NCBI GenBank assembly: GCA_964480775.1
Contig: CAYZRF010000029.1
Span: 1-19,594 of the forward strand
DNA: 19,594 nucleotides
Reading direction: 5' to 3'
From: an uncultured Nitrososphaerota archaeon
Lineage (GTDB): Archaea > Korarchaeota > Korarchaeia > Korarchaeales > Korarchaeaceae
Shown here piece after piece: positions 1 to 19,594 of this stretch. Positions within the stretch are counted from its first letter, which is position 1, and each line of letters opens with the position of its first letter. Both the position numbers and the translations under genes were made by a program. Under the pieces are notes generated by a model. That model searched no databases. It was not told where the DNA came from and saw only the letters and a program-made list of their open reading frames with translations.

Positions 1-1
1 C

Positions 2-172
2 TTTAGCTTCGATTCATCACAAACAGTAAGGGAGACAGGAGTCAAAGTTAAAGTTCGCGATACCGATAACTGGCATTACTTCCTTCTCCTTAGAGATATT
101 TTATCTTCTCCGCTAAATCCCGATGCTGGAGATACTATCACCATAACCTATGTTATTCAAATGAATGGTTGA
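2..172 (+). CDS. 3' end of an upstream ORF (partial), possibly another surface protein
   Basis: This frame is open from the window edge to TGA 170-172 (56 codons: FSFDSSQTVRETGVKVKVRDTDNWHYFLLLRDILSSPLNPDAGDTITITYVIQMNG). It is below the ORF-track cutoff. Its stop overlaps the TTG 169 start of the next gene (TTGA). Confidence 0.35.
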   Translation, partial: FSFDSSQTVRETGVKVKVRDTDNWHYFLLLRDILSSPLNPDAGDTITITYVIQMNG

Positions 173-1446
173 GCAAATTGAGCAGGGCTAAGAAGATAGC
201 CGTAATTCTTGTGCTATCTGTCTTAGCCTTTACCGTTTCCTTTTTTCTAACCTTGGATTATAGTGAAGAATTCCTCGTCCGCATCGTATCGAATCTTCTG
301 ATTGGATCTGATGTAATAAAAGCCGGAAATATCACTTCTTCTTTCTCGACTGATAGTTATGTATTGCCAGAAGCTTGTAGTCCCTTCATTAACGCTGTTT
401 TAGCAAGGAATAAGAGATTTATCCATGCTGTAAGGAATTACATCGAGACTCAGCCAGATTTGACCAAAGATGGCTTGGTGTTTGAAAACGTAGAGACAGA
501 TACCAAGCTTGCTGGAAGCCCAAAGATTACCGTACTTATGTCAGCTACCCTACAACAGCAAGTTTCTCTTTCTTTAGATGCTGTTCTTGTAACTGACACC
601 TCTAACAACTCAGTATCGACTTTGGATGTCAACACAGAGTTCTGGATCTACATCAACATAACCTGCACTTCTGGGCTTGATGATCTGGCAAATATAACGG
701 TGTGGCTCTATCACTCGGATCACTACTCCAGTCCTCCTTCTCAGCACCATCTTAACTCAAGCTATAAGTGGGCTTGGGTAAACGGAGAGGGATGGCAAGA
801 AAAGGGACCTGATGGAACGGGAACGCCAGATAACACCAACCCATCAGGCTATAAGCACATTCCCGGAACGTGCCATACTCCTTCCCTTACTGACACTTAT
901 GGTGTCTGGAAGCTCTCATTCAACTTATCAAAGATAGCAGAAGATACAGGGACGACGAATGATTGGATCCTGAACGTAACGGTTTACAATAGTAGCGCCA
1001 ACACATGGGACAGCACGACGCTCACTCTCGATCTTAACTTCTATCAAGAGATCTCAGTTAATGCTACTATGGTAACTTGGGACGGGCTTCCGGGCTATGC
1101 AGGAGTAGCTCCAAACGGAACAACGACCTATACTTTCATCTGTAATGACGCCTACAACATAACGGCTAAAGGAACCGATTTTACCTCTGGATCCTATACG
1201 ATAGGAGTTGGGAACTTTACCGTTGACGATGATTCAACGCCAGATGAGGCGACGGAAACAGGCGCAGATGAGCTACAACTTACGACCGTCTATCAAGATT
1301 TCATTACCAACAACCCCGTAACTACGACCGAAGCGGGAGATAATAAGGACTTCTGGTGGTTTGCAGATATTCCATCAGCAGCACCGCCTACAACCTATAC
1401 TGGAACGCTTTACATATCGGTTAATGACTGCAATCCAGACTCATAG
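169..1446 (+). CDS. Membrane-anchored/secreted sequon-rich surface protein, paralogue A of 2499-3497
   Basis: 425-aa ORF with TTG start (exact start uncertain) and an N-terminal hydrophobic segment IAVILVLSVLAFTVSFFLTL. The C-terminal ~290 aa are collinear with 2499-3497 (TYTFICNDAYNITAKGTDFTSG, GVGNFTVDDDSTPDE, KDFWWFADIP, YTGTLYISVND). Many N-x-S/T sequons. Confidence 0.75.
   Translation: MSKLSRAKKIAVILVLSVLAFTVSFFLTLDYSEEFLVRIVSNLLIGSDVIKAGNITSSFSTDSYVLPEACSPFINAVLARNKRFIHAVRNYIETQPDLTKDGLVFENVETDTKLAGSPKITVLMSATLQQQVSLSLDAVLVTDTSNNSVSTLDVNTEFWIYINITCTSGLDDLANITVWLYHSDHYSSPPSQHHLNSSYKWAWVNGEGWQEKGPDGTGTPDNTNPSGYKHIPGTCHTPSLTDTYGVWKLSFNLSKIAEDTGTTNDWILNVTVYNSSANTWDSTTLTLDLNFYQEISVNATMVTWDGLPGYAGVAPNGTTTYTFICNDAYNITAKGTDFTSGSYTIGVGNFTVDDDSTPDEATETGADELQLTTVYQDFITNNPVTTTEAGDNKDFWWFADIPSAAPPTTYTGTLYISVNDCNPDS
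1110..1169 (+). repeat. Near-identical DNA tract shared with 3161-3220 (59/60 nt)
   Basis: Hand alignment: tccaaacggaacaacgacctatactttcatctgtaatgacgcctacaa[c/t]ataacggctaa occurs in both paralogous genes, while flanking DNA is much more diverged. Confidence 0.9.
1396..1429 (+). repeat. 34-nt tract identical to 3447-3480
   Basis: tatactggaacgctttacatatcggttaatgact is present at the 3' end of both paralogous genes. Confidence 0.9.
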
Positions 1447-1447
1447 T

Positions 1448-1768
1448 TTAAGGAAGCCCAGCAATAACTTCTGAGACTATTACAGCAAGATAGATTGTAA
1501 GAAAGAGAAAACAGTATATGAAAAGAAACTTGTTGGTTCGCTCCAGTTCTTTAAGGAGAGCTCTTATGAACCTAAAATACACATACAAAACAACGATCAC
1601 ATAGTTTAGAACGAATACAAGGGCTTGGAATAAGCCTAAGCTTTCAAGAATTTGAATAAGTCTGCTTACCTCGTAAGAGAGAAAAACAAAGCTCAGAGCT
1701 ATTATTCCTCCAAGCGCTATCCACAGAGCCATTTCATCAAAGAGCGCGAGAGCCTCTTTGATCTTCAA
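1448..1768 (-). CDS. Small polytopic membrane protein downstream of the RHH gene
   Basis: 106-aa ORF (TTG 1768, or ATG 1732) that is almost entirely hydrophobic helices (WIALGGIIALSFVFL, ALVFVLNYVIVVLYVYF, FLFIYCFLFLTIYLAVIV). It starts 1 nt after the RHH stop. A second RHH gene at 17801-18085 is also followed by a small membrane-protein gene (17577-17804). Confidence 0.6.
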   Translation of the reverse strand: MKIKEALALFDEMALWIALGGIIALSFVFLSYEVSRLIQILESLGLFQALVFVLNYVIVVLYVYFRFIRALLKELERTNKFLFIYCFLFLTIYLAVIVSEVIAGLP

Positions 1769-1769
1769 C

Positions 1770-2051
1770 TCAACCTATCTCCTTCAACCTCTTGATTTCC
1801 TCGTCTATGATCTGAGGCTTGTTCAGAACTATGTATCTAATGACCTTTCTCATGCCATCTTCTGTTAGTTTCAGCCCCCCCTCCCAGTCTATACCAGATT
1901 CCCTTAAGCGGAAGAAGGACACAATTATTTCTCTTATCGCCTCGGATTTATTTGGGATTCCCCTCTCCCTCATAAAGTTCTCTATTTTCCTTTTGGTTTC
2001 GTTTCCATGAGCAAAGGCTGTTCTATGAGGCAGGGTTGACTTCCTACGCAT
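1770..2051 (-). CDS. Ribbon-helix-helix (CopG/Arc/MetJ-like) DNA-binding protein with C-terminal extension; paralogue of 17801-18085
   Basis: RHH pattern: beta strand HRTAFAHG, then helices KRKIENFMRERG and NKSEAIREIIVSFF. About half the residues are identical to 17801-18085 by eye. I prefer ATG 2051 (AAGGGTGGT RBS upstream; 8-nt overlap with the upstream stop) over the track's GTG 2060. Confidence 0.8.
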   Translation of the reverse strand: MRRKSTLPHRTAFAHGNETKRKIENFMRERGIPNKSEAIREIIVSFFRLRESGIDWEGGLKLTEDGMRKVIRYIVLNKPQIIDEEIKRLKEIG

Positions 2052-2295
2052 GGCTACCACCCTTTAGCTCCACCAATTTTTCAAGAGCCCAATCTCTCTC
2101 ATCCTCATCAACAGGAACCGAGGCTACTCTTGCCAGAAAGGCTTTCTTCGCCCTTTTAGTGAGCTGACAATAACAATAACCACAACTGGGACATACGAGA
2201 GTATTACAGATTGGACAGACCTTTGCCTCTGTTGGATCAAAGGGCTCCAGACAATGGAAGCAGATAGCGACTTTCAGCTTGGGCTTTGCGATCAT
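2044..2295 (-). CDS. Small Cys-rich zinc-finger/zinc-ribbon protein
   Basis: 83 aa with CFHC-x12-CPIC-x4-CPSC-x2-CYC. ATG start preceded by AAGGGG. First gene of the minus-strand three-gene cassette. Confidence 0.7.
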   Translation of the reverse strand: MIAKPKLKVAICFHCLEPFDPTEAKVCPICNTLVCPSCGYCYCQLTKRAKKAFLARVASVPVDEDERDWALEKLVELKGGSHA

Positions 2296-2498
2296 AAAAC
2301 CCCTTGTATTTAGTAAAATAGTTTCTTATAAAATTATACTTTATCTAAATAAGATCTTGAGTGAGGTCTTCAACTAAATTACTTTCCTTGCCTTGCTCTT
2401 GCATTTCCTTTTGGTATCTGACTCCCTTCATCACCTTGGTGAGGGATCTTCTAAACATAATTTTAAATTAAATAAAAGCCATTTTCCAAGGTAGGCAC
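2296..2498. promoter_or_regulatory. Divergent promoter region; longest non-coding stretch in the window
   Basis: TATA-like attttataag (minus strand, plus coordinates 2325-2334) lies ~30 nt upstream of ATG 2295. TATA-like ttttaaattaaataaaag (2461-2478) lies ~25-35 nt upstream of ATG 2499. A pyrimidine-rich CCTTG-CCTTG-CTCTTG run sits near 2385-2405. Confidence 0.4.
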
Positions 2499-3497
2499 AT
2501 GAAAAAACTGGCGCTCATTTTAGTAGCTTTGCTTTTGATTCCTACCATAGCCCTCGTGAGAGTTGCGAGTGAGCAAGCCGTCTCTGGTCAACTGACTGTT
2601 GGGAACACGGCGCCTACAATAAACGGCATAGATATAACTGATACAAGCAACGTTTCGGTCTCCTCCATCAATGCGAACACAGAATATTGGATCTACATCT
2701 CTATATCCGACTCCAACACCCTTGCGGACATCAAGAACATCACGGTTTATCTGTTCCACGGAGACAAATACACAGATCCTCCCGGATCTTATGCTTTAAA
2801 CAATAGCTATGCCTTCGCTTGGGTAAACGGAAGCGGTTGGAAAGAGCTCGGACCCGATAGCACGGGAACCCCAAGCGATACTACTCCATCAGGCTATGAC
2901 CACATTCCCGGAACCTGCGCCGTTCCATCAGATTTCAGCGCTTCTACTGGACAATGGAAACTTTCATTCAAAGTCAGCAAGATAGCGGAAGACACGGGGG
3001 CAACGAACACTTGGTATGTGAACGTAACGGTCTATGATAATGCGAGCACTCCAAACACCGATAACATCGAGAGCACGTTTGACGTGAACTTCTACTCAGA
3101 GATCTCCGTTAACGCCACTTTGGTTACATGGGCTGGATCTCCGGGAGCTACTGGTCTATCTCCAAACGGAACAACGACCTATACTTTCATCTGTAATGAC
3201 GCCTACAATATAACGGCTAAGGGGACTGATTTCACTTCAGGAACCAACGTCATTGGAGTCGGGAACTTTACTGTCGATGACGATTCAACGCCAGATGAGG
3301 GAACCGAAACTGGCGTTGCTGAGCTCCAGCTTTCAACTACATATCAGACCTTCATAGAGAATGTTGGAGTCAGCACGACAGAGACGGGCGATGACAAAGA
3401 TTTCTGGTGGTTTGCGGACATTCCAGCAACCGTAGCAGAAGGAACTTATACTGGAACGCTTTACATATCGGTTAATGACTACAATCCTAACTCTTAG
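2499..3497 (+). CDS. Secreted sequon-rich surface protein, paralogue B of 169-1446
   Basis: Sec-type signal peptide MKKLALILVALLLIPTIALVRVASEQ. About ten N-x-S/T sequons by my count. The GNTAPTINGIDIT start of the mature part resembles Ig-like/cadherin-like domain boundaries. No C-terminal anchor. Confidence 0.9.
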   Translation: MKKLALILVALLLIPTIALVRVASEQAVSGQLTVGNTAPTINGIDITDTSNVSVSSINANTEYWIYISISDSNTLADIKNITVYLFHGDKYTDPPGSYALNNSYAFAWVNGSGWKELGPDSTGTPSDTTPSGYDHIPGTCAVPSDFSASTGQWKLSFKVSKIAEDTGATNTWYVNVTVYDNASTPNTDNIESTFDVNFYSEISVNATLVTWAGSPGATGLSPNGTTTYTFICNDAYNITAKGTDFTSGTNVIGVGNFTVDDDSTPDEGTETGVAELQLSTTYQTFIENVGVSTTETGDDKDFWWFADIPATVAEGTYTGTLYISVNDYNPNS

Positions 3498-3506
3498 GAG
3501 AGTAAA

Positions 3507-4541
3507 ATGAAGCGCTTGATTCCTCTACTCGTACTGCTTTCAGTAGGAGCGTTTAGTGTCTTTGCAGGTCCCTCAATAGGTCTGAGCTCGCCTTCCTATA
3601 TTTTCGAGGTGGTTCCCAGCACTACCATAAAGACGTATTTTCTTGTCTATAACCCAAGCAACAGCACGGTTACGATACATATAGAAGCAGAGGGTTTAGA
3701 GGTTTCATTCTCTCAAAACGATTTTGAGCTTAAAGGAGGAGAGAACCAGAAGGTCTACGTCTATATAACCGTTCCTCAAAGCCTACCTGCTTCAGGGCTA
3801 ATAGACATACAGCCCATCGGTGCAGGCAACATAATGGTCGGGGCTTCAAAGCAGATTTTCCTATCCCAGAAGGATCCATTCGTCGAGGTTAGCACAGATG
3901 TTGTTACGGTTGTTGAAGGAAAGTCCTTCTGTCTTAGGGTTACTCCTAATTTCCGATCTACAATCTCCATTTCTTATGATGATAGCTACTTGATCTTTGG
4001 AGAAACTCAGAAGGAGGCTTATGCCTGCGAAACTATAACATTCAGGGGAAGAGCCCTACGAGCTGGAACCACGAGAGTTAGTGTCAGAGCCGTTGGAGAA
4101 GGGCATGACGTCTCAAAGGAATTGGAGATAGAGATTGGGGGGTATAGTGGGCAGTTCTACGTTACATACCCTGATAAAATCTCGATCAGAGTTGGGGAGG
4201 TAAAGAAAGTAGAGTTTTGGGCTTCAAAATACTGTTCTCTTTTTGTTGATGAATATGATGATTCTATCATTTCTGTCAACGCTCCAAGCTTTCTAAATGC
4301 TGGGAGCAACTTCATCAAAATCGAGGGTTTGAAGAGAGGATCCACTACCCTGAAGATGCACGTTACCTATGAGAACATAACTGGATACATAACGATCAAC
4401 GTCAAAGTTGGGGGGATTGGCGGGCTCAACCTTCCCAGCGTTGGTGAGACAAGAGATTACCTTATTTTCGGTGGAATAATAAGTCTTTTTGCTCTTGGAA
4501 TCGTATTAAAGAAGAGAAAGCAGGAGTATTATGGGTATTAG
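3507..4541 (+). CDS. Secreted Ig-like multi-domain protein with C-terminal TM anchor
   Basis: RBS GGAG precedes the ATG. Signal peptide MKRLIPLLVLLSVGAFSVFAGPS. N-terminal CARDB/Ig-like pattern (FELKGGENQKVYVYITVP). Two Big_2-like patterns (VVTVVEGKSF...RAGTTRVSVRAVGEG and ISIRVGEVKK...KRGSTTLKMHVTYEN). C-terminal LIFGGIISLFALGIVLKKRK. Confidence 0.85.
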   Translation: MKRLIPLLVLLSVGAFSVFAGPSIGLSSPSYIFEVVPSTTIKTYFLVYNPSNSTVTIHIEAEGLEVSFSQNDFELKGGENQKVYVYITVPQSLPASGLIDIQPIGAGNIMVGASKQIFLSQKDPFVEVSTDVVTVVEGKSFCLRVTPNFRSTISISYDDSYLIFGETQKEAYACETITFRGRALRAGTTRVSVRAVGEGHDVSKELEIEIGGYSGQFYVTYPDKISIRVGEVKKVEFWASKYCSLFVDEYDDSIISVNAPSFLNAGSNFIKIEGLKRGSTTLKMHVTYENITGYITINVKVGGIGGLNLPSVGETRDYLIFGGIISLFALGIVLKKRKQEYYGY

Positions 4542-4580: not shown

Positions 4581-5213
4581 ATGAAACGGGGCTTAGCACT
4601 ACTGCTACTTCTCTTTCTGCCGTGCATTGCTATCATAGCAGACGAAGAATCCGTGAGTGGAGAGGTTGGTGTCGGTCAATTCTATAATCTTACGATCTCT
4701 TCTTCAGGCATTTCTGAAATAGAGGGAAGAGCCCTCGTAAAAATAGATGGGAATGCTGTAGGTGAAGTCTACGACGGCTCTTCAATCACAGTTGAAGTTA
4801 AAGAAGGAACGCATAGTGTTTGGGTAGAGGAGCAAACTACTGGTGTTGAATATACATACTCTTTCGATCATTGGGAAGGAGGCTCTTCAGACGATCCGAT
4901 AACGATTAATGTTGTTTCTGATATGGAGCTCGTCGCCTATTACATAAAGACACCAATAACTACGCCCAGTCCACCACCTGTTCCCCCTCCCGGCACAAGA
5001 CCTCCTACAACAACGGCTCCCCCTCCCGTTACAACCGCTCCCCCGAAGGTTATCATTATAACTCCAAGCAGAGGCGCCTCTTTCTTCATTATTCTAATTA
5101 TACTTATTCTTCTGATAGTGGGCTTGATTCTTGTTCTATACTATAAAAAAGAGAAGGGGGAGAGCGCTCCTTCGTCTCAACTCAAAGGTTTTATTTTTCC
5201 CTTAATTAAATAA
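4581..5213 (+). CDS. Secreted protein: InlB-B-repeat-like beta domain, Pro/Thr-rich stalk, C-terminal TM anchor
   Basis: Signal peptide MKRGLALLLLLFLPCIAIIADEE. GSSITVEVKEGTHSVWVEE...YSFDHWEGGSSDDPITINVVSDMELVAYY matches the G..v.l.a.p..GY.F..W.G....np..i.m..d..v.A.F pattern of divergent InlB B-repeat domains. The stalk is TPSPPPVPPPGTRPPTTTAPPPVTTAPP, followed by TM FFIILIILILLIVGLILVLYY. Confidence 0.85.
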   Translation: MKRGLALLLLLFLPCIAIIADEESVSGEVGVGQFYNLTISSSGISEIEGRALVKIDGNAVGEVYDGSSITVEVKEGTHSVWVEEQTTGVEYTYSFDHWEGGSSDDPITINVVSDMELVAYYIKTPITTPSPPPVPPPGTRPPTTTAPPPVTTAPPKVIIITPSRGASFFIILIILILLIVGLILVLYYKKEKGESAPSSQLKGFIFPLIK

Positions 5214-5217: not shown

Positions 5218-8200
5218 ATGCAAAGGAAATCTCTGCCTCTCGCTTTCGCTTTTGCCTTCATTGTAATTATGGTTCTCTTCAGTCCTATAAAAGAATACAG
5301 CGCTCAGAACGAGCCTCCAAACAAACCAGAACTCTATGAACCAAGCCCTAGTGGAACTTATGTTACTACGATAACTCCTTGGTTGAACTGCACCTTCATC
5401 GATCCTGATGGAGATTCCATGAATGCAACGTGGTATTGGGCTAATGGAACGAAAATAGGAGAGGTTCTCAATATTCCTAACGGAACTACGACAGGAATTC
5501 AGGTAAATGTTGCTTGGGATTCTTCCTATAGCTGGTATGTCGTCGTTACAGATGGAACCTCTAACAATCAATCAGATACTTGGTCCTTTACAACATGGGC
5601 GCCGGGTTGCCTGTTATGGTACCCCTTGGATAGAGATGAGGTTCATGGAACCACAGTCTATGATAGGTCTGGAGCAGGAAATAATGGTTTAAGAGATTCT
5701 ACTGACAATGTTGTTCCCTATTTTTGGAATTATCCCGAAAACTACGTTTTCTGGCACAAGGGTGGCTCAACAAATGCCATACATTTTGATAGCTTAAAAA
5801 ATGAATTTTTAGCCAATGATTTCTGTGTCTTCGCTTGGACTTGGTTTTATGAGCTGGCTCCCGCAGGTCAGCATGGAATTTTTGCAACCCTTGGAAATAA
5901 GAAGGTTCGTCTCTATTCAAAAGATTATTACACTGGTAAGATAAAATTCTATGTTACATACACGAATGGGAGTTCTAAAGAATATGAAGCCAGCGAGGCT
6001 ATAGATGTTAAGAAATGGGTTGCTCTGGTGTATCAAAGAAAGGGTTCTAGACTTGAGATCTTTAAGAATACAACAAAAATTTTAGATCAGGACATAGGAA
6101 ATGAGGACTTTTTCATAGATTCGATTGATGATCATAGAATTGGCTATTACACGAATTGGTACGGGATGCCTAAGTTCTATGGAAAGGATTATCGGATTTA
6201 CAGTCGAGCCTTGACCTCAGAGGAAATTACTCAAGCGGAGTATTTGCTGCGTAACATAATTCCTGCTGGCTATCTTCAGATAAATTGGTCTTCTTGGGAA
6301 TTTGCTGAGAAATATTACTATATTGTCTACAAAGGAGACTTTAATACTGTTTACGCTTCTGGATCAACTACCAATACCTTCTTTAACATAAGCTATGAAC
6401 CGGGGTTCCAATACTTTGTTAAGATCATCGCAGAAGATACCTCGCAGAGCAAAAACACGACATGGCTTGTTGAGAGCTTCATGACAGATGGTGCACCTCC
6501 ATTAGAGGGCTGCTTTGGTTGGTGGACTTTAGATGAAGGATCTGGATCTATCGCCTATGACTATTCTGGTTGGGGAAACAATGGAACAATTACTGGCGCT
6601 ATTTGGAAATACATAAACGAGAGCTGGGGCTATGCTCTTAGCTTTGATGGAGGAGGATATTACGTTGATTGTGGGTTTGGAGACCTTCTAAACCCGAAAG
6701 GAGATCCCTTTACTATTGTAGCTCTAGTTTCGACCAATTACACAAACCTTGGTGGAATGTTTGGAAAGGTTATGTATGGAATGGGTACCAGCACAGAGTT
6801 TGGATTCTTCTACTATCAGCATAAATGGTATTTTACCGTAGGACCTCCGAGAGCTAATCTTTATTCGGATGAATATGACACGGGATCTTGGTACCTTATT
6901 CAGGGATTAAGAAAGAGCGATGACTACATATATTTCTATGTAAATGGAATAAAACAGGCTGGAACTGCTCAGGTGACAGGAATAACTGGTTTTGAGGACT
7001 TCCCCTTCTACATAGGAAGGGCAGCTACTGGGATTTATCCGGGCGCAGCTATTCAGGATGAGCATCGGTATTATAGAAGGGCTTTAACTGATTCTGAGCT
7101 CAATCAGACTGCATATCTTCTATCGCACATAATTCCTGCTGGCTATCTTCAGATAAATTGGTCTTCTTGGAGTTATGCTGATAAATACTACTATGAGGTA
7201 TGGCAAGATAACTTCAGCACGTTATATGCTTCAGGAGTAACAACGGATACATATGTAAATTTGAGTTACGATCCCTCGCACAAGTATTATGTAAGAATAA
7301 TAGCGGAAAATTCTTCTTATAATCTGAACTTAACTTGGCTCGTCGAAGATTTCTATGTGAAGAACAACTGTCCTCAAGCTTCCTTGGCTTCTCCCTTACC
7401 GAACGGGACGATAATAAACAGCATTAATCCTTGGTTAAATAGCACATTTATCGATTTGGATCTTCATTTGATGAATGCAACGTGGTATTGGGCTAATGGA
7501 ACGAAAATAGGAGAGGTTCTCAATATTCCTAACGGAACTACGACAGGAATTCAAGTGAACTTGCAAAGAGGAAGATGGTACTATTTCTATATCAATACGA
7601 CTGATGGATGGGATATCAACCAAACAAAGATCTTTGCATTCTATGTAAACGCCCTTCCAGAGATCCACAGTATAAACGTTAACTCCTCCTCCATCTTTAG
7701 AGGAAAGGCTTTGAACATAACGGCAAACATAGATGACCTTGAGGACATTCCTGAAGTCTATATTTCTATAGGAAAAGATGGCTCTTGGTTCGTGGTCAAT
7801 CAGTCTATGACCTACCTTGGATCAAATGTGTTTTCCTACATCTACAGTCCAGCTTTCTCAGATGCCATCGGTTCATACGACATAAAGATATACTCCAACG
7901 ATAGCAACGGAGGAGAGAATACTCTACTCATCAATTCTGCCTTTAATGTCAAGAATAATCCTCCAGCAATTCTAGAAATTAACATTCCTACTCCAACAGA
8001 AGGGAAGCTATCTACTATTACGATAAACGTAACTGATCTTGAGACTTCCACCGATCTTCTCCGTGTTCATGTCGAAATAGAGAAGAAGGGTTCTACTCTG
8101 GCTTCTGGAGAAGCAACCTACAAGGACGGAGTCTTTGTCTTTAGCTGGACTCCTCCCGCTGGCAGTAGCGATCCGACGGCTATAATAACAGTTACAGACA

Positions 8201-13891: not shown

Positions 13892-14193
13892 CCAATATAG
13901 CTGGTTGACTCTTTCTTCTCCTTATCTCCCGGTAGTTTTATTTCTCCAAACTGCTCTTCATAGCTTTTTATATTGGCTTCTAACTCCTTCAAGAAGCGTT
14001 TTGCGTGTTTGGGCGTCAGGGTGATGATTGCTTTAGCAACTGGTTTCCTGCCGGGAGCTGATCTAATAAAGATAAGGGAAAATTCGTCCCATCTGTTCAT
14101 AATTAGAACTCCGTTGCTAAAGACTGGCTCCAGATTCTCTGGAACATCTACTTTTATTTTGTTTTTTCCTATCTGTATCTCGATTGCGCCCAT
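13888..14193 (-). CDS. DUF3467-family protein
   Basis: SNGVLIMNRWDEFSLIFIRSAPGRKPVAKAIITLTPKHAKRFLKELEANIKSYEEQFGEI matches my memory of the DUF3467 consensus (...EF.lDF......a.v..rIilTP.hAKrLl.aL..ni..YE..FGEI). RBS GAGGT upstream. Confidence 0.8.
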   Translation of the reverse strand: MGAIEIQIGKNKIKVDVPENLEPVFSNGVLIMNRWDEFSLIFIRSAPGRKPVAKAIITLTPKHAKRFLKELEANIKSYEEQFGEIKLPGDKEKKESTSYIG

Positions 14194-14198
14194 TACCT

Positions 14199-14606
14199 TT
14201 ACCTCTTGCTCTTTTTCATAGATATGTAGGATACCAAGATGGCTAAGAATAAGAGAGCTATGACCAGCTCTTTCCTAACGCTACTTACACCGCCAAGCTT
14301 TATGGCTAAATACCAGCCTCCTAAAACAACTCCGGGTAGAAGCATAGATTTCAATTGAAGGAAGGTCATAATCGTCCTTCCGATGTCTGATGCTGTTTTT
14401 AGAGCCGTCATTGCAGAGAAGCTTTCTCCCCTTAATTTCTTAAGAATGCTTTCTCTTTCAGCCTTTAACCTCTCTAACTCTTGTTTATAGAGGAATGGGC
14501 TTCTCTTTTCCGCTATCTCTGTTTGAACGGCTTGTTCATATCGTCCTATCTGATGTTCGAGGAACCGTAGCTTGTCCTCTAAAACCCTTCTGTCCTCTGA
14601 CATCAT
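14199..14606 (-). CDS. Coiled-coil protein with C-terminal membrane segments
   Basis: 135 aa. N-terminal ~60 aa are heptad-like (LEDKLRFLEHQIGRYEQAVQ...ELERLKAERESILKKLR). Hydrophobic segments follow (LLPGVVLGGWYLAIKLGG, LVIALLFLAILVSYI). First gene of a three-gene minus-strand operon. Confidence 0.75.
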   Translation of the reverse strand: MMSEDRRVLEDKLRFLEHQIGRYEQAVQTEIAEKRSPFLYKQELERLKAERESILKKLRGESFSAMTALKTASDIGRTIMTFLQLKSMLLPGVVLGGWYLAIKLGGVSSVRKELVIALLFLAILVSYISMKKSKR

Positions 14607-14634: not shown

Positions 14635-14653
14635 TAAGCGGTAGAATATCTTT

Positions 14654-14723
14654 GGGGCGGGTATGTCCCATGTGAAGGTGCGCCCACGTATCTCCGATGA
14701 GGACAGCCCCCTAAACCCGCCCC
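14654..14723 (+). ncRNA. Candidate structured small RNA (GC island E2)
   Basis: 70 nt with 46/70 G+C by hand count. 9-bp closing helix GGGGCGGGT/ACCCGCCCC, second helix TGTCC/GGACA, inner hairpin ATGTG..GG-TGCG-CC-CACGT. An unpaired ATCTCCGATGA segment remains. TATA-like box at the right distance on the plus strand. Not tRNA-like (no T-loop or D-arm). Confidence 0.35.
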
Positions 14724-14726
14724 GCT

Positions 14727-14760: not shown

Positions 14761-15150
14761 TTATAGAACTCCTGCTTTATGAAGATTCATTCTGAACCTT
14801 CGTATCTGATGTTTTAGAAGATTGGGAGATTTTCCTACAGTTATAGCTATGTCCTTTATCCTTATTCTTTCTTTCGGAATCGTGTTCTCTGCTATGTTTT
14901 TTGGTTTTATCTTTGTTTGAGACAGATCCATCTCAACAAGCCCTTCTTTTTCCATATCCAGAAGAGTGGTTATTATGGTCTTTGTAGAAAATGATTCCCA
15001 TCCCTCATAAAGACACCAAAGGTTCATTAGCTTCAGCAACTCTTCCAAAGTCATGTTCTCGTTTTTTAGCATATTTTTTGGAGTCTCAGTAAGAATCGTG
15101 AAGATTATCTGTTTGATTGGTGGTCTTGGGATCTTAGAGAAAGTTTCCAT
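14761..15150 (-). CDS. Putative winged-helix DNA-binding protein
   Basis: 129 aa. TLEELLKLMN...FSTKTIITTLLDMEKEGLVEMD resembles a wHTH recognition helix plus wing. Overlaps the upstream gene's stop by 17 nt. Last gene of the operon. Confidence 0.65.
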   Translation of the reverse strand: METFSKIPRPPIKQIIFTILTETPKNMLKNENMTLEELLKLMNLWCLYEGWESFSTKTIITTLLDMEKEGLVEMDLSQTKIKPKNIAENTIPKERIRIKDIAITVGKSPNLLKHQIRRFRMNLHKAGVL

Positions 15151-15517
15151 CGAGGAGCCCCCTCCTAATGAGAGCCTTCTTTATAGTGCTCCAAAGCAAG
15201 CCTACTCTTGTTATGAGTTCTTGTTCATCTATCGGGTTTTCCTTTGTTCCTATAGGGATTATCCTGCGGTAGCGTTCTGGAACAATTCTTACCAGCACAT
15301 GAATAACAGAGTCTTCGTTTATTTCCCCGAACTCCTTTTTTGCCCTTTCTAAAACCTCTTTGAAGAACTCTTCTGTAACCACATAGCCCAGCCCCTTCTC
15401 AAAGTCATGGATAATCCTAACCATACCGAGCTCAGCCATTTCTTCGATGATTAGCCGTGTTTCTTCGTAGCTTGGCTCTTTCTTCCGTCGTCTAACCACA
15501 TAGATTTTATCCACCAT
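15134..15517 (-). CDS. Hypothetical protein (127 aa)
   Basis: I place the start at ATG 15517 (MVDKIYVVRRRKKEP...), preceded by GGGAGGT and overlapping the upstream stop by 11 nt. The track's longer form (to 15634) would overlap the protease gene by 128 nt. Confidence 0.7.
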   Translation of the reverse strand: MVDKIYVVRRRKKEPSYEETRLIIEEMAELGMVRIIHDFEKGLGYVVTEEFFKEVLERAKKEFGEINEDSVIHVLVRIVPERYRRIIPIGTKENPIDEQELITRVGLLWSTIKKALIRRGLLDGNFL

Positions 15518-16151
15518 ACAGAACCTCCCACCAGTCGAATTCATCTGGAAAGACGTTGATAGCCTCGAAAATGCTCTCGAACTCGTGTTCATACACAAAG
15601 TAATTGTCAAAGTATGGGTTATCCCACCAGACAATGCTATATGTCGTTGGTTCTACGGGCATCCATCTATTCGGACTTGTTTCTACAAGTAGCCAAGCGT
15701 GCTTTCCTCCTCCAAAAGGAGCTCTGCCCGTTACAATAATGGTGTGGTAGCCCTCATTTTCCAATCTCCATTCGAGATATGCTGCCATTTCAGAGCAGTC
15801 AAAAACATCCTTTGTATAGGCTCCCTCAGTCCACTCCCATCTCTCCAGATAGTCTGCTAAGTCATAAACCCCGTATCTCTGGCTGGATAGTGAGCAGTAG
15901 TAGAAGAAGAACTTCTCTTCCTCCAACCTTTGCTGTAAAGTCTGTATTTCGCTTCTAAGCTGTCTATTTTCCGATTGAAGCTTCTCTATGTATCTGGAAG
16001 CGTAGGTAATACTTGTGTTGAGCTCATTTAAGATCTCTGTCATCTCTTTAATCTCTCGCTCTCTTAAGAGCAGACCGAAGCCTATCCCGCCTGTAAATAT
16101 GATAGCAACAAGGATTAGGAGAGCAGGATAGGATATTGACATCTTTTCCAT
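15507..16151 (-). CDS. Membrane-anchored coiled-coil protein with transglutaminase-like cysteine protease domain
   Basis: N-terminal TM YPALLILVAIIFTGGIGFGLLL. Coiled coil EKLQSENRQLRSEIQTLQQRLEEE. Then FDCSEMAAYLEWRLENEGYHTIIVTG...GKHAWLLVE...WMPVEPT, which matches the Cys...His...Asp/Glu arrangement of the transglutaminase-like/papain-like superfamily. Confidence 0.75.
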   Translation of the reverse strand: MEKMSISYPALLILVAIIFTGGIGFGLLLREREIKEMTEILNELNTSITYASRYIEKLQSENRQLRSEIQTLQQRLEEEKFFFYYCSLSSQRYGVYDLADYLERWEWTEGAYTKDVFDCSEMAAYLEWRLENEGYHTIIVTGRAPFGGGKHAWLLVETSPNRWMPVEPTTYSIVWWDNPYFDNYFVYEHEFESIFEAINVFPDEFDWWEVLYGG

Positions 16152-16154
16152 GGC

Positions 16155-16334
16155 TTACACCTCTATTACGGGTTTCTCAGAAACAGCTTTGAGGAAATCG
16201 TTGTTCAGCTCAGCGATCTTTTGATTAAATTCCTCCTCGCTTAGAACTTCGCAGACAGGCTCCAGCCCCCGCTCACAATCCCTATAAAATGGAAGCACGC
16301 ACCATCTCTTCTTATACTCGCACCATACCAGCAC
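16155..16334 (-). CDS. Small Cys-containing hypothetical protein (59 aa)
   Basis: GTG 16334 sits 5 nt downstream of a GGGAGGTGA RBS. The track's GTG 16343 lies inside that RBS. Sequence LVWCEYKKRWCVLPFYRDCERGLEPVCEV... Confidence 0.5.
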   Translation of the reverse strand: MLVWCEYKKRWCVLPFYRDCERGLEPVCEVLSEEEFNQKIAELNNDFLKAVSEKPVIEV

Positions 16335-16521
16335 GTTTCTCACCTCCCTTCAAATCTTCTTGCATTTTCGTAAGACCTTCGAGAAACGCAACGACAAGGG
16401 CATCCTCTGGTTTGTGCCCCATCTTCCTGCTCCATCTTATTAAGAGATAGAATTCGTTCTTATCGAGCTCAATATTGGCAAAAGCTCTATCAGGAATCTT
16501 TCTGAAGAAAGAAACCTTCAT
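16312..16521 (-). CDS. Small hypothetical protein (69 aa), possibly RHH-like
   Basis: ATG 16521 (MKVSFFRKIPDRAFANIELDKNEFYLLIRWSRKMGHKPEDALVVAFLEGL...) overlaps the stop of the upstream Zn-ribbon ORF as ATGA. The track's longer N-terminus (to 16710) competes with better-looking small ORFs in other frames. Confidence 0.5.
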   Translation of the reverse strand: MKVSFFRKIPDRAFANIELDKNEFYLLIRWSRKMGHKPEDALVVAFLEGLTKMQEDLKGGEKRAGMVRV

Positions 16522-16664
16522 TTCTTTCCCCTCTTTACCTTCTTTATGTCCACCCTCTCTCCGCAGTTCAAGCAATTGACGAATTTGTCGTATCCCTTGG
16601 GAATCCTTATGCTCTTCCCACACTTCGGGCAATTTATGGTCTCGTAATAGGATTCCCAGTCCAT
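16518..16664 (-). CDS. 48-aa zinc-ribbon protein (not in the supplied ORF track)
   Basis: My translation: MDWESYYETINCPKCGKSIRIPKGYDKFVNCLNCGERVDIKKVKRGKK. CPKC-x15-CLNC is a classical Zn ribbon. RBS-like GGGGTGG upstream. TAATG overlap with the upstream ORF and ATGA overlap with the downstream ORF. Confidence 0.6.
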   Translation of the reverse strand: MDWESYYETINCPKCGKSIRIPKGYDKFVNCLNCGERVDIKKVKRGKK

Positions 16665-16837
16665 TAGACCACCCCTTCTCTCTTAAGCTCCCGCAAGACC
16701 TCCCGTGCACCAGCTACTCTACCCCTGTAGAACTCAATCAGTTTCTCGTCCTTTTCTTCTTCCATCTTCGTGACTAATTCAGCCTCAAAATCTTCGATCA
16801 GCCCTTCTATTATCTGCTGGATCCTATCTCTTTTCAA
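16664..16837 (-). CDS. 57-aa helical micro-protein (not in the ORF track; TTG start uncertain)
   Basis: My translation: (M/L)KRDRIQQIIEGLIEDFEAELVTKMEEEKDEKLIEFYRGRVAGAREVLRELKREGVV. A G-rich stretch lies 6 nt upstream of TTG 16837. Its stop overlaps the Zn-ribbon ATG. An alternative ATG at codon 25 would give a shorter product. Confidence 0.35.
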   Translation of the reverse strand: MKRDRIQQIIEGLIEDFEAELVTKMEEEKDEKLIEFYRGRVAGAREVLRELKREGVV

Positions 16838-16994
16838 CCTTATCCCCCCCGAATTCTTTATCGTAATCTATACCTAAACGCTCTGCGTATCTTCTGGCTA
16901 CTTCCTCCCCCTCGATTTGCCTGAGAAGAGAAATCATAGCAAGATGGAAGCCGTTCATATAGTTTGTGTTGATCCTATGGATTATCTCTGCCAT
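16824..16994 (-). CDS. 56-aa micro-protein (not in the ORF track)
   Basis: My translation: MAEIIHRINTNYMNGFHLAMISLLRQIEGEEVARRYAERLGIDYDKEFGGDKVEKR. A perfect GAGGTGA RBS lies 4 nt upstream of ATG 16994. Confidence 0.5.
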   Translation of the reverse strand: MAEIIHRINTNYMNGFHLAMISLLRQIEGEEVARRYAERLGIDYDKEFGGDKVEKR

Positions 16995-17003
16995 GTACTC
17001 ACC

Positions 17004-17165
17004 TCACTCGCTTATTTCTATGGTAACTTTGTCTGTGGGCTTCAATTCAAGCCTCTCTCTGATAATGCGCTTCATGTGTTTTATCAGTAGCTCTTTCGGT
17101 AAGTTCTTTGCATATCTCGGAAAATCTTCAGAAAGGCTGGCTTTAATTATGACCTCCACCATCAT
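17004..17165 (-). CDS. 53-aa micro-protein (not in the ORF track)
   Basis: My translation: MMVEVIIKASLSEDFPRYAKNLPKELLIKHMKRIIRERLELKPTDKVTIEISE. GGGAGGGAGG lies directly upstream. ATGA overlap with the stop of 17162-17560. Confidence 0.5.
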   Translation of the reverse strand: MMVEVIIKASLSEDFPRYAKNLPKELLIKHMKRIIRERLELKPTDKVTIEISE

Positions 17166-17560
17166 CCTCCCTCCCAAATCCCTAAAACAACAGTTCCGTT
17201 CTCGAAGATCAAAAGAACCTCGACTCTATAGACCAGATCCCCTGTCTTTGCATCATGAAAGCTTATTGCATCCCCTTCTGCCAAAAGCAAGGGCTTATAT
17301 CTTGATGACTCGCCTTCCCAAGCAGAACTAAAGATTTGGAGTTTTACTTCTTTCGTTTGAAACCAGAACCAGCCAGACCTCCTTATCCCTAAGTTTCTGA
17401 TGAAGATGGGCTCTTCTATTGATTCTCCCACATCCAAATTTACTTTTGTAAAGTTTTCGAGTGTTCCTTGCTTCAATCTTGACGCTGGCGTTGAGAGCAG
17501 TATAAGAGTCATACTTAGAATCAGCACGCCGATGGCAACAAACGAGAGAATTTTATTCAT
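17162..17560 (-). CDS. Secreted or N-terminally anchored small beta-rich protein
   Basis: Signal/anchor MNKILSFVAIGVLILSMTLILLSTPAS. RBS GGGGGAG upstream. 132 aa. Confidence 0.75.
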   Translation of the reverse strand: MNKILSFVAIGVLILSMTLILLSTPASRLKQGTLENFTKVNLDVGESIEEPIFIRNLGIRRSGWFWFQTKEVKLQIFSSAWEGESSRYKPLLLAEGDAISFHDAKTGDLVYRVEVLLIFENGTVVLGIWEGG

Positions 17561-17576
17561 ATCATCTCCCCCATAC

Positions 17577-17804
17577 TCATTTTAGCAAGAAAACTGCTGA
17601 GAGAAACAGGAGCACAGCGGACTGACTTATTATTGTAAGAAGATAGAATTGCAGATCCTTCTCACGCCATTTTATCTTGATGAACCCCCCTTTAGATCTC
17701 ATGGTTTGGATTTCTTTCTTTGCTTTCCTATACAAGAGAATGAAGTTTATTAGAAATGAAGCTACAGAGCCTAGAATAAGTATTTCCCAAAGATTTAAGC
17801 TCAT
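17577..17804 (-). CDS. Small two-TM membrane protein downstream of the RHH gene
   Basis: 75 aa. LWEILILGSVASFLINFILLY and YLLTIISQSAVLLFLSAVFLL flank a basic loop. ATGA overlap with the RHH gene stop. Same gene order as 1448-2051. Confidence 0.65.
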   Translation of the reverse strand: MSLNLWEILILGSVASFLINFILLYRKAKKEIQTMRSKGGFIKIKWREKDLQFYLLTIISQSAVLLFLSAVFLLK

Positions 17805-18085
17805 TGCCCGACCTCCCTAAGCCTTTTTATCTCATCGTCCAAGATCTCCTTTTTCTCTAATAGAATCCATCGTATGACTGTTCTGGCTCCATCATCTGTC
17901 AGGCTGAGACCGTTGTCCCACGTGATTCCATGTTCTTTTAGGCTGTAGAAGCGCTTTATGATCTCCCTTATGGCTTCTGATCTGTTGTTTAGCCCCTTTT
18001 CATTGAGAAAGGAGTCTATTTTCTCCATAGTTTTACCATCGCAAGCGAACGTGAGCCTATGAACAAACCCCCTCTCCAACTCCAT
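17801..18085 (-). CDS. Ribbon-helix-helix DNA-binding protein, paralogue of 1770-2051
   Basis: HRLTFACDG beta strand, then helices TMEKIDSFLNEKG and NRSEAIREIIKRFY. The C-terminal half (GITWDNGLSLTDDGARTVIRWILLEKKEILDDEIKRLREVG) aligns with the other copy. Confidence 0.85.
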   Translation of the reverse strand: MELERGFVHRLTFACDGKTMEKIDSFLNEKGLNNRSEAIREIIKRFYSLKEHGITWDNGLSLTDDGARTVIRWILLEKKEILDDEIKRLREVGQ

Positions 18086-18105
18086 TATGAAGATAGTAAA
18101 CCAAA

Positions 18106-18123
18106 TTCATATAAAGTTTTACC
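18106..18123 (-). promoter_or_regulatory. BRE/TATA-like promoter of the RHH-led minus-strand operon
   Basis: The minus strand reads AAAACTTTATATGA, ending ~23 nt upstream of ATG 18085, which implies a leaderless or very short leader mRNA. An inverted repeat TATGAA(18087-18092)/TTCATA(18106-18111) brackets the TATA-to-ATG interval. Confidence 0.45.
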
Positions 18124-18138
18124 TTAGTATGAAAGTCT

Positions 18139-18549
18139 TTAATAAAGCTCGGTGAACATCTCTGGACGCAAGAAAAATGACCTTATTGCTACATAGAAGA
18201 CGAAAGAGCAGATCATTAGCCATATTGCGATCATCATGGCTCTTTTTATGTCTCCCGCTGTCCAATGAGAAGCTCTATGGATAAAGTGAATGGAGATGCC
18301 ATAGAATAGCAGTATGAGTCCAACGGAAAGGTCAAAATAGCTTGTAAGAATCGCTACCGCTGATATTGCGCTTGCTAAAAGGACTGTCCAATGAGATGGC
18401 TTATCTAAACTATAGAGGATCTCTTTTAGATGGATTAGAGAAAGGAGGGCTAAGACTATGGAGAAGCCGAGAGCTACTACTGGAAGCTGAAGGATTCTTA
18501 TCATAGCCATAAAGACAAAGGTAGGGCGAATTAAATTGCGCAGATACAT
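18139..18549 (-). CDS. Polytopic membrane protein (about 4 TM helices)
   Basis: 136-aa hydrophobic ORF (VVALGFSIVLALLSLI, LLASAISAVAILTSYF, GLILLFYGISIHFI, MMIAIWLMICSFVFYVAI). Confidence 0.7.
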   Translation of the reverse strand: MYLRNLIRPTFVFMAMIRILQLPVVALGFSIVLALLSLIHLKEILYSLDKPSHWTVLLASAISAVAILTSYFDLSVGLILLFYGISIHFIHRASHWTAGDIKRAMMIAIWLMICSFVFYVAIRSFFLRPEMFTELY

Positions 18550-18550
18550 T

Positions 18551-18679
18551 TTAGCTCGCCTCTTCAGATTTTAGGTATTCCTCTACTCTTTTTTTTAGCT
18601 TCAATAACTCAGTCTTTAGATCTGTTACAGCAAATATGAGCGCTAACAAAAGGATCCATTGAATTATCTCATTTATCAT
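18551..18679 (-). CDS. 42-aa single-TM micro-protein (not in the ORF track)
   Basis: My translation: MINEIIQWILLLALIFAVTDLKTELLKLKKRVEEYLKSEEAS. It fills an otherwise empty gap. It overlaps the upstream stop by 11 nt and ends 1 nt before ATG 18549. Weak RBS. Confidence 0.35.
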   Translation of the reverse strand: MINEIIQWILLLALIFAVTDLKTELLKLKKRVEEYLKSEEAS

Positions 18680-18956
18680 CTTTCTTAGCTCTCCCGTCAG
18701 GATCAACAGAGATTGGAGGTCTAACCAGCTCTCTCGCCAGCTCTTGGTAATCCTCTGCCTCTTCCTTTACCTTCTTGATTATTCTTACGCTCTTCTGCCT
18801 TGCGATCTCCTCGATGACATAAACTTCTTTGCCATTCTCGTCAATAGCTTTCCAGAGCGCAACGTATATGGCGTTTGGAAATAGATTGCCTATATAAATT
18901 CTCTTATCTCTACCGACACGCCTAATTATGGGAAATTCTATTTTCTCCTCAGCCAT
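18669..18956 (-). CDS. Hypothetical protein (95 aa)
   Basis: I place the start at ATG 18956 (MAEEKIEFPIIRRVGRDKRIYIGNLFPN...), preceded by AAGGAGGGG. The track start at 18980 lacks an RBS and overlaps the upstream gene by 32 nt. Confidence 0.7.
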   Translation of the reverse strand: MAEEKIEFPIIRRVGRDKRIYIGNLFPNAIYVALWKAIDENGKEVYVIEEIARQKSVRIIKKVKEEAEDYQELARELVRPPISVDPDGRAKKDDK

Positions 18957-19236
18957 CCTTTTTCCCCTCCTTGCTATCATAGGCTAATAATGCGAGATCC
19001 ATTAGGAGCTTTTTTAATTTCTTTCCTTTTCTTGTTAGCACAAAAATTTTGAAATCGCCATATTCGAGAGTAGGCTTTAGGAAGCCAAGGTGCTCAAGCA
19101 TAGTGATTTCCCCGCAGAATTTTGTATCATAGGTGAGCTCACCTTTTTCAGCGAGTTCTATAGCTTCCAAAACCTTCGGTCTAACAAGAGCTCTCACAAA
19201 AGTGAGCATTTCGGGTTTAAATTCTTCATTTTCCAT
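18949..19236 (-). CDS. Putative winged-helix protein (95 aa)
   Basis: VLEAIELAEKGELTYDTKFCGEITMLEHLGFLKPT...FKIFVLTRKGKKL resembles a helix-turn-helix plus beta wing. RBS GGGGTGAT upstream. Confidence 0.6.
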   Translation of the reverse strand: MENEEFKPEMLTFVRALVRPKVLEAIELAEKGELTYDTKFCGEITMLEHLGFLKPTLEYGDFKIFVLTRKGKKLKKLLMDLALLAYDSKEGKKDG

Positions 19237-19250
19237 AAGATCACCCCAAT

Positions 19251-19267
19251 TTCGAATAAATTCGAAT
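19251..19267. promoter_or_regulatory. Operator-like repeat TTCGAAT-AAA-TTCGAAT
   Basis: Two TTCGAA palindromic cores lie exactly 10 bp apart, which also reads as a 7-bp inverted repeat TTCGAAT/ATTCGAA with a 2-nt spacer. The site sits in the 37-nt gap between 19274-19588 and 18949-19236, just upstream of the RBS. Confidence 0.3.
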
Positions 19268-19273
19268 CATTTT

Positions 19274-19588
19274 TCAACCACCGTATTTCTCACCGCAATA
19301 ATAGTGTTTCTCAATCAACTCTTCAAGTTCATTTACCACTTCGATGATTTTTTGCCAATCACTATTTTCTTCGTTGCAAAATCCATGAAATTGCGCATAT
19401 GGACATTCAATTTCGTCGCAATAAATCGGAAATCCTTTTTTCCGTGCTTCAAGATTTCGCAAAACGCAAAAATAGCAGGCGTCGCCAGATATTGGAAATT
19501 TTCCAAGCCAAGCAAGCAGTATTTGTTGTTTAAGACTCATTATCTCCTCAACAGTTTTGGCTTTTTTCATCAATTCCAACAGATGCAT
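19274..19588 (-). CDS. Cys-rich hypothetical protein (104 aa)
   Basis: CYFC-x22-C-x4-C-x9-C plus His residues suggest a metal-binding fold. The start lies close to the window edge, so the upstream context is unseen. Confidence 0.6.
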   Translation of the reverse strand: MHLLELMKKAKTVEEIMSLKQQILLAWLGKFPISGDACYFCVLRNLEARKKGFPIYCDEIECPYAQFHGFCNEENSDWQKIIEVVNELEELIEKHYYCGEKYGG

Positions 19589-19594
19589 AACTTC

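Follow-up and report, generated by a model that had tools for sequence, protein, structure and literature searches.

Gene layout and ends of the contig

The stretch of DNA considered here, contig CAYZRF010000029.1, is an entire NCBI record of 19,594 bp rather than an excerpt, and is hereafter called the window. Its genes, among them one for a PriS-like primase, are described first, and the virus, plasmid or chromosome from which they could derive is then discussed. The window has a G+C content of 43%, and stop-to-stop open reading frames (ORFs) of at least 80 amino acids (aa) cover 93% of it, whereas 50 shuffled versions gave 24% on average and 35% at most. The gene set consists of 36 genes and one ORF cut at the left end, with 95% of the bases being coding. 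About half of the gene junctions overlap by 4-47 nt, the two larger overlaps being start-codon artefacts, and only four gaps are longer than 60 nt. An earlier reading made from the letters without database searches (the sequence-only reading) had listed over 40 short, tightly overlapping ORFs; the dense packing is real, whereas the count drops to 36 plus the truncated ORF, some of the listed ORFs being antisense shadows. The three modules that it had outlined were all recovered, namely signal-peptide proteins at 169-8463 and 12624-13556, a primase module at 8491-11464, and a string of small minus-strand genes at 11593-19588 comprising ribbon-helix-helix (RHH), winged helix-turn-helix (wHTH), Cys-rich and transmembrane (TM) proteins (Table 1). 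In the same line, Pfam and NCBIfam scans of the window proteins returned none of the metabolic or translation genes whose absence it had noticed.

On the plus strand, a reading frame already open at base 2 ends with a TGA at 167-169, which overlaps the TTG start of 169-1446. Since an open frame runs off the edge, with its stop coupled to the next start as in real neighbours, the left end is a break inside a gene, which supports the suggestion of the sequence-only reading that the window could be a fragment. Circular closure was judged unlikely: no terminal repeat was found, the two contig ends share no repeat or overlap, and joining them would place the start of the truncated plus-strand ORF within the 5' end of 19274-19588, a divergent gene. 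Besides, positions 10835-14136 of the window are matched with 100% identity by a Logan contig of 3,302 bp assembled from run SRR15988952, and this run therefore contains the same element.

Hallmark genes were searched for throughout the window. ARAGORN detected no tRNA, Rfam gave nothing at E<=1, and all six frames were free of a Walker A motif, while capsid, terminase, portal, integrase/recombinase and ATPase families remained without match among the window proteins in Pfam, NCBIfam and PHROGs. Nor does the window encode partition, conjugation or toxin-antitoxin genes, a helicase or a polymerase, and PADLOC returned only coiled-coil noise. Regarding attachment (att) sites, the only long direct repeats in the window are those between paralogs, so that the signs of an integrated element (tRNA, recombinase family, att-like direct repeats) were not found within the window. 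The capsid protein, packaging or partition ATPase, integrase and tRNA att site that the sequence-only reading could not find are thus indeed absent from the window. As the window is a fragment, however, a missing ATPase, integrase or capsid gene says little about the whole element.

Table 1. Genes and other features of the 19,594-bp window
Feature	Position	Strand	Size	Remarks
Gene cut by contig end	2..169	+	C-terminal 55 codons	From translation of the contig end; no Pfam match
Secreted beta-rich paralog A	169..1446	+	425 aa	N-terminal hydrophobic segment; 12 NxS/T sequons
Hydrophobic protein	1448..1768	-	106 aa	3-4 hydrophobic helices; between the two secreted paralogs; no significant PHROGs/Pfam match
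RHH-type regulator	1770..2060	-		Paralog of 17801-18085 (55% identity, E=6e-35)
Zinc-ribbon-like protein	2044..2295	-	83 aa	8 Cys; weak FYVE_2 match (E=0.0023)
AT-rich divergent intergenic region	2296..2498			TTTTAAAT/TTATAAAA boxes, read directly from the sequence
Secreted beta-rich paralog B	2499..3497	+	332 aa	10 sequons
Membrane-anchored protein	3507..4541	+	344 aa	Signal peptide, C-terminal TM anchor; weak Ig-like/Fn3-like; FixG_C E=7.5e-4, below Pfam cut-off
Membrane-anchored protein	4581..5213	+	210 aa	Signal peptide, Pro/Thr-rich linker with 21-nt repeat, TM anchor
LamG surface protein	5218..8463	+	1081 aa	Signal peptide, two LamG/ConA-like domains, S/T/G/P linker, TM anchor; 32 sequons
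Two-domain protein	8491..9285	+	264 aa	N-terminal aa 10-108 in common with contig L007; C-terminal aa 134-253 = phrog_2164
Cys-rich protein	9257..9523	+	88 aa	Directly upstream of primase
PriS-like archaeo-eukaryotic primase	9507..10703	+	398 aa	Catalytic domain ~aa 1-210; conserved alpha/beta C-terminal domain ~aa 250-398
Acidic protein	10681..10950	+	89 aa	Overlaps primase stop; same position in L007
Winged-helix regulator	10982..11464	+	160 aa	Coiled-coil tail; Pfam HTH_24 E=1e-6; PHROGs transcription regulators
Three small hydrophobic/TM proteins	11593..12633	-	113, 91, 71 aa	Internal starts, as called on contig L005; no Pfam or PHROGs match
Membrane-anchored protein	12624..13556	+	310 aa	Signal peptide, C-terminal TM anchor; 8 sequons; no Pfam, NCBIfam or PHROGs match
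Three genes	13553..14606	-	112, 101, 135 aa	Basic protein (weak HTH); DUF3467 protein; coiled coil with C-terminal TM
G+C-rich hairpin	14653..14725		73 nt	10-bp closing stem GGGGCGGGTA/ACCCGCCCC
Co-directional string of 16 small genes	14761..19588	-	51-214 aa	Includes RHH 17801-18085, two Cys-rich and five TM proteins
Protein with N-terminal TM and coiled coil	15507..16151	-	214 aa	C-terminal Cys...His pattern (FDCSEMA, KHAWLLV)

A stand-alone PriS-like primase and its metagenomic relatives

The product of 9507-10703 is, by fold and motifs, a PriS-like archaeo-eukaryotic primase (AEP), and the sole firmly identified enzyme of the window. The segments VFDVD (106-110), SGKRGYHV (137-144) and DDTSNTRQIVKIPLS (182-197) occur in the right order for the AEP motifs I (DxD), II (sGxGxH) and III (D...R/K.P.S). 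Across 12 relatives, D108, D110 and G141 are invariant, G138, H143 and D183 are conserved to at least 90%, and the DxD, SGxxGxH and D...R..K.P.S motifs are kept among the closest relatives of the protein. In the closest one of all (P0002, contig L001, 6791-7990), glutamine takes the place of the motif II histidine (SGRRGYQV); coevolving variation at this position, glutamine included, has been described (PMC5862659).

An AlphaFold2 model built from five sequences (pLDDT 75.7) gave as first Foldseek match the PriS subunit of the S. solfataricus PriSLX complex (5of3_A, E=8.5e-8, probability 1.0). The top 50 PDB matches listed all have the AEP fold, including PriS/Pri1, the LigD polymerase domain, the CAPP Prim-Pol and a cyanophage PrimPol, and the best matches among predicted viral structures are the AEP domains of uncultured tailed phages, the baculovirus LEF-1 and an archaeal-virus primase. 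The window primase alone has no Pfam match, DNA_primase_S included, and among 60 of its relatives 31 match DNA_primase_S and 10 match LigD_Prim-Pol. The profile of this 60-member family recovers in the PDB the PriS of S. solfataricus (E=7.5e-19), the P. furiosus primase (E=4.6e-16) and Pyrococcus primases at about 1e-15. A primase or polymerase activity of the protein is predicted.

The protein nevertheless falls outside the cellular archaeal PriS equivalogs, since it scores far below the curated NCBIfam cut-offs (23.5 bits versus 143.5 and 20.6 versus 326, for TIGR00335 and NF001641) and has no PriL partner, neither a PriL-like gene nor PriX being encoded in the window. More precisely, it shares with the S. 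solfataricus PriS (PDB 1zt2, 5of3), which matches it best in structure and profile, the catalytic fold and motifs I-III, but is only 15-17% identical to it, lacks the PriL/PriX partner and carries an extra C-terminal alpha/beta domain of about 150 aa. This domain (aa ~250-398) is well predicted and contains conserved SNNVLGT, KYKxN and SxGH motifs; it was assigned to no family, a Pfam scan of the isolated domains at E<=1 being empty.

Regarding the distribution of the family, a word-indexed search of 5.8 billion proteins returned two primase relatives only, and an exhaustive HMM search of 1.84 billion representatives returned 522, of which 58 have E<=1e-30, most being about 400 aa long and matched over their full length. 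Every relative whose contig was looked up comes from a metagenome (JGI, ENA, Logan; contigs of 1.3-72 kb) and none from an isolate genome. Scans with short peptide patterns detected no close relative in 185,579 species-representative genomes (GTDB) or in IMG/VR; over genome, metagenome and IMG/VR contigs, such scans gave a single 2.5-kb primase relative (contig L003) and nothing for the LamG, 264-aa, 214-aa and 89-aa proteins.

The closest context is that of contig L007 (JGI 3300033144, Ga0366838_1019480, 11.7 kb), which has four genes in common with the window: the primase, the acidic gene overlapping its 3' end, the N-terminal domain of 8491-9285, and a 129-aa winged-helix-like protein. While L007 also resembles the window by its G+C content (42%) and its thermophilic amino-acid composition, the shared genes are only 31-38% identical (blastp), and its DUF5131, PAPS reductase, TauE and thioredoxin-like genes, together with other secreted proteins, have no counterpart in the window. 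A second informative contig, L039 (JGI Ga0186713_117126, 44.7 kb, G+C 37%), is densely packed with small unannotated ORFs, encodes Alba, a PolB exonuclease domain and DUF2201, with a faint match to Hjc, and is probably a large archaeal virus or plasmid. It also bears a polyprenyl synthase and a radical SAM gene; its primase is 39% identical to that of the window. The element was seen on 12 contigs, and the same primase occurs on contigs of up to 72 kb.

Where their context is readable (L007 and L039), the contigs carrying primase relatives are thus similar to mobile genetic elements (MGEs). Four others (L001, L002, L003 and L008; 2.5-9 kb, G+C 29-55%) have only the primase in common with the window. 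Because the primase contigs span 29-55% G+C and share only this gene, it looks like an exchangeable replication module moving between mobile elements of different hosts. In this context, the replication modules of Thermococcales viruses, stand-alone AEPs included, were described as exchangeable (PMC12934983).

Virus, plasmid or chromosomal region

Apart from the primase, nearly everything in the window is orphan. Megablast of the window found nothing in 50,697 phage records or 72,556 plasmid records, and tblastn of the primase and the remaining proteins (joined queries) against these collections gave single-domain matches only (phrog_2164-type, DUF3467 and LamG). Six window proteins were looked up among about 15 billion sequences: five of them form singleton clusters, and the remaining one is seen again only in the Logan assembly of the same element. 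The secreted paralogs 169-1446 and 2499-3497 are 66% identical over 293 aa and, within the search sensitivity, have no relative except each other among 5.8 billion proteins. By contrast to these orphans, the C-terminal domain of 8491-9285 matches phrog_2164 (E=8e-30), which is found in hypothetical proteins of Gamaleyavirus and other Escherichia phages, of Staphylococcus and Streptococcus phages and of Bacillus phage G, with plasmid matches in Nostoc and Vagococcus.

These data favour a mobile element, because the primase relatives looked up lie on metagenome contigs, MGE-like where readable, with none close detected by pattern scans of the representative genomes, because the proteins are nearly all orphans with surface paralogs matching only each other, and because 8491-9285 carries a domain otherwise typical of bacterial phages and plasmids. 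The window is therefore probably an incomplete contig of a virus or plasmid of a hyperthermophilic archaeon, the complete element being longer than 19.6 kb; it is best read as a new, unclassified archaeal mobile element, that is to say an additional representative of a known type of element. The sequence-only reading had likewise preferred a virus- or plasmid-like element to chromosomal backbone, and this preference is supported by the PriS-like AEP with its metagenome-only relatives, the orphan proteins, the phage-type domain and the truncated left end. To that reading are now added the identification of the primase as a PriS-like AEP, its sizeable family seen on metagenome contigs only, the four-gene module in common with L007, signs of hyperthermophilic origin, and the negative comparisons with PAV1 and pT26-2 given below.

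Several points weigh against a mobile element. None of its hallmarks (integrase, att site, tRNA, capsid, terminase, portal, partition or packaging ATPase, Walker A motif) was found within the window, and the source record is an NCBI genome contig, so that the region may be binned into a metagenome-assembled genome, integrated or chromosomal. Besides, the scans of genomes and IMG/VR use short peptide patterns, which distant relatives escape. As no helicase or polymerase is encoded, the replication role of the primase is deduced from its family context, and the archaeal host is deduced as well, from the indirect signs discussed below. A chromosomal origin would imply that the region is either a highly variable cell-surface island of an uncultured archaeon or an integrated element, decayed and no longer mobile, in its genome. 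It would agree with the genome source of the record and with the lack of integrase and att site in the window, and surface-protein islands are common in archaeal genomes. It appears quite improbable, however, given that 19.6 kb contain not a single housekeeping gene, that the primase family was seen on metagenome contigs only, MGE-like where readable, its close relatives being absent from the 185,579 representative genomes by pattern scans, and that the window proteins have no relatives in any genome.

An N-terminal hydrophobic segment of signal-peptide type is present in six proteins, four of which also end with a C-terminal TM helix followed by basic residues, and four of the six contain 8-32 NxS/T sequons each. 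In the LamG protein 5218-8463, Laminin_G_3 is matched by Pfam (E=5.9e-14) in two stretches, and weak Ig-like matches occur near the C-terminus. An internal duplication of about 684 aa encloses both LamG domains and is visible in the DNA as a 137-nt repeat (5371-5507 / 7423-7559, 87% nucleotide identity, spacing 2052 nt), which fits the rapid domain shuffling reported for viral lectins. This recent duplication copies a whole unit, made of an N-terminal beta domain, the LamG domain and the following domain. In view of the sequons and the lectin family, these proteins might be glycosylated and bind glycans; the secreted and membrane-anchored, sequon-rich proteins (169-8463 and 12624-13556) would then sit on a virion envelope or on the host cell surface, with surface glycans as ligands.

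Such an arrangement recalls the spindle-shaped viruses of Thermococcales, and the sequence-only reading had pointed to PAV1 and TPV1. The defining genes of their families encode an AAA ATPase, two proteins of ConA type, and a TM cassette to which the helical-hairpin capsid protein belongs (PMC12934983). In terms of architecture the likeness stands: TM-anchored ConA/LamG lectin proteins adjoin small TM proteins, RHH and wHTH regulators are present together with a long arm of small unannotated ORFs, the replication module can be a stand-alone AEP, and both show moderate G+C and a hyperthermophile-type protein composition. The size class of the PAV1-/TPV1-like viruses and of the candidate families 'Osirisviridae', 'Sethviridae', 'Thothviridae' and 'Anubisviridae' (15-34 kb; PMC12934983) is also comparable, the new families being compared by description only. 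In terms of sequence the likeness to PAV1 fails, since tblastn at E<=0.1 found neither PAV1 (EF071488), apart from one chance-level match (E=0.04), nor the plasmid pT26-2 (GU056179), and the archaeal viruses of the phage collection gave no match except LamG against an Altiarchaeum virus (E=0.09). The window moreover differs from these viruses by lacking an AAA ATPase, an integrase and a recognisable capsid protein, and by having a single protein with recognisable lectin domains, two in number, where they have two lectin proteins. The contig is not filed under any PAV1-/TPV1-like or 2026 candidate family.

It is nonetheless possible, though doubtful, that the window is part of an enveloped, spindle-shaped or similar Thermococcales virus (PAV1-like, TPV1-like or of two further candidate families), in which the LamG and paralogous secreted proteins would be virion adhesins, a small hydrophobic protein the helical-hairpin capsid, and an AAA ATPase and an integrase would lie off the contig. 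The core reported for such viruses, i.e. TM-bearing ConA-like lectins, a TM cassette including the capsid, exchangeable modules including stand-alone AEPs, and a variable arm of small ORFs (PMC12934983), is in agreement with this view. So is the position of 1448-1768 on the minus strand between the secreted paralogs, as the capsid gene of 'Anubisviridae' (14.6-20.6 kb) lies between lectin genes with TM ORFs on the opposite strand (PMC12934983). Besides, G+C content and thermophilic composition resemble those of PAV1, and the cut left end leaves room for missing core genes. On the other hand, no match exists to PAV1 beyond the chance-level one or in the phage collection beyond one phage-type domain, no PHROGs capsid family was matched, only one protein has recognisable lectin domains instead of two, and the window contains no ATPase. 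Several small proteins with 2-4 TM helices are encoded, none of which matches PAV1 ORFs or PHROGs families; such capsid proteins are usually recognised by structure only.

The same lack of a detected capsid or packaging gene would suit a plasmid, possibly moved in membrane vesicles, which would replicate with its own primase and give its host new cell-surface proteins. Capsid-less MGE communities were classed as probable plasmids (PMC12934983), and AEP-based replicons are typical of archaeal plasmids (PMC5862659; PMC2926602). The Thermococcales plasmids pT26-2 and pTN2 from hyperthermophiles, of 12-21 kb and with mostly orphan genes (PMC2926602), resemble the window in these respects, and pTN2 also uses an AEP, PolpTN2. 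PolpTN2, in which a large C-terminal domain of PriL type is joined to the AEP, falls into a cluster of its own (PMC5862659), pTN2 being set apart from the window by its description only. With pT26-2, in contrast, there is no protein similarity, so that the core proteins shared by its family were not found here by tblastn, and the records of the plasmid collection are matched by single domains at most. Since partition, conjugation and toxin-antitoxin genes were not found either, and since the absence of a capsid is weak evidence in an incomplete contig, a plasmid of this kind seems rather unlikely.

Returning to the preferred reading, an archaeal mobile element of either kind, its host is suggested by several indirect signs. 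The IVYWREL fraction of the soluble proteins is 0.464 in the window, 0.464 in L007 and 0.452 in PAV1; by a published linear rule, the window value would correspond to roughly 100 °C, and the composition thus points to a hyperthermophile. An archaeal host is suggested by the PriS-type primase, by the Alba, faint Hjc and weak Cdc6-type winged helix encoded on related contigs, and by the TATA-like AT-rich intergenic boxes. A G+C content of 43% fits Pyrococcus, Palaeococcus and some Thermococcus, and other hyperthermophiles as well.

Replication of this mobile element would depend on the module 8491-11464, which is built around the stand-alone PriS-like AEP. The primase would probably start replication by making primers at the origin of the element, after which host polymerases and helicases would take over. 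It is accompanied by the upstream Cys-rich protein, the downstream 89-aa acidic protein as a putative partner, the two-domain protein 8491-9285 as a possible accessory factor, and a presumed winged-helix regulator. The variable part of the element would be the leftward-transcribed arm, whose small genes, about 20 in number, include those for RHH and wHTH regulators and for small membrane proteins. A more far-reaching proposal, to be taken as speculative and on the unlikely side, is that a hitherto undescribed family of viruses infecting hyperthermophilic archaea is sampled here for the first time. The 332/425-aa paralogs and the proteins encoded next to them would then be envelope proteins of families or folds for which current databases gave no relative, and the primase, with its C-terminal domain and 89-aa partner, would form a self-sufficient MGE-specific initiator passing between archaeal elements whose hosts differ widely (29-55% G+C).

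The sampling of mobile elements from hyperthermophilic archaea is still sparse, and the contig adds to it a replicon of almost only orphan proteins. A single 2026 preprint added 16 candidate families of Thermococcales viruses (PMC12934983). Besides, the contig leads to a family of PriS-like primases that stand alone and share a conserved additional domain; it counts about 500 representatives (50% identity) and was seen here on metagenome contigs only. Should the enzyme be able to start replication with neither PriL nor PriX, it would represent a compact, thermostable primase, and the family could then serve as a marker for further archaeal elements. No concept is changed thereby, and the contig is a lead for cataloguing and enzyme work.

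Accessory genes, small genes and a hairpin

Within the primase module, the 264-aa protein 8491-9285 is a domain fusion, phrog_2164 being joined here to an N-terminal domain that stands alone in L007. Conserved His, Asp and Cys residues (HIHR, VHGG, FDCGHYGD) in its phrog_2164 domain suggest metal binding. The 264-aa, 214-aa and LamG proteins gave no match against PDB sequences. At the place occupied by the Cys-rich gene 9257-9523, contig L001 has a Cys-rich ORF of 61 aa, the likeness being positional only, with no sequence match. The acidic protein 10681-10950 is 35% identical (E=1e-9) to the 93-aa product of L007 1718-1999, both having the motif W-x-W-I-x3-DFSE; a pattern scan detected no relatives in IMG/VR. 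It may be an accessory subunit of the primase.

The two secreted paralogs are 75-79% identical at the DNA level over the C-terminal two thirds, their N-terminal parts being different, and they are separated by three opposite-strand genes coding for a TM protein, an RHH protein and a zinc-ribbon protein. Because they flank an RHH gene that is itself a paralog of 17801-18085, the element has undergone a segmental duplication. A model of the 332-aa paralog from a two-sequence alignment reached a pLDDT of 40, which is too low for a fold. The 1448-1768 product could possibly have a capsid or membrane role, and the AT-rich region 2296-2498 is presumed to hold the promoters of both arms.

With regard to the minus-strand genes, the RHH protein 17801-18085 matches Pfam RHH_1 and the DUF3467 protein (13888-14193) is recognised with E=1.5e-12. 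The string 14761-19588 also holds the 129-aa protein in common with L007, the L007 copy of which has a weak WHD_Cdc6 match. In total, the window encodes four small Cys-rich proteins and about ten small membrane proteins, the latter including the products of 1448-1768, 11593-11934, 12277-12492, 17577-17804 and 18139-18549. The 214-aa protein 15507-16151 had been considered as a papain- or transglutaminase-like cysteine peptidase on the basis of its DCSEMA ... HAWLLV pattern; this candidate was dropped, as it found no support in any library.

Finally, the hairpin 14653-14725 lies inside the AT-rich gap 14607-14760, about 35 nt downstream of a plus-strand TTTATA box, and has on this strand a minimum free energy of -36.4 kcal/mol (z=-3.9). 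A tRNA fragment or att site was rejected, ARAGORN and Rfam being negative, and IMG/VR contained no homologs, the 30 pattern matches sharing only the stem as expected by chance. The hairpin might correspond to a small RNA or serve as an origin element or recombination site.

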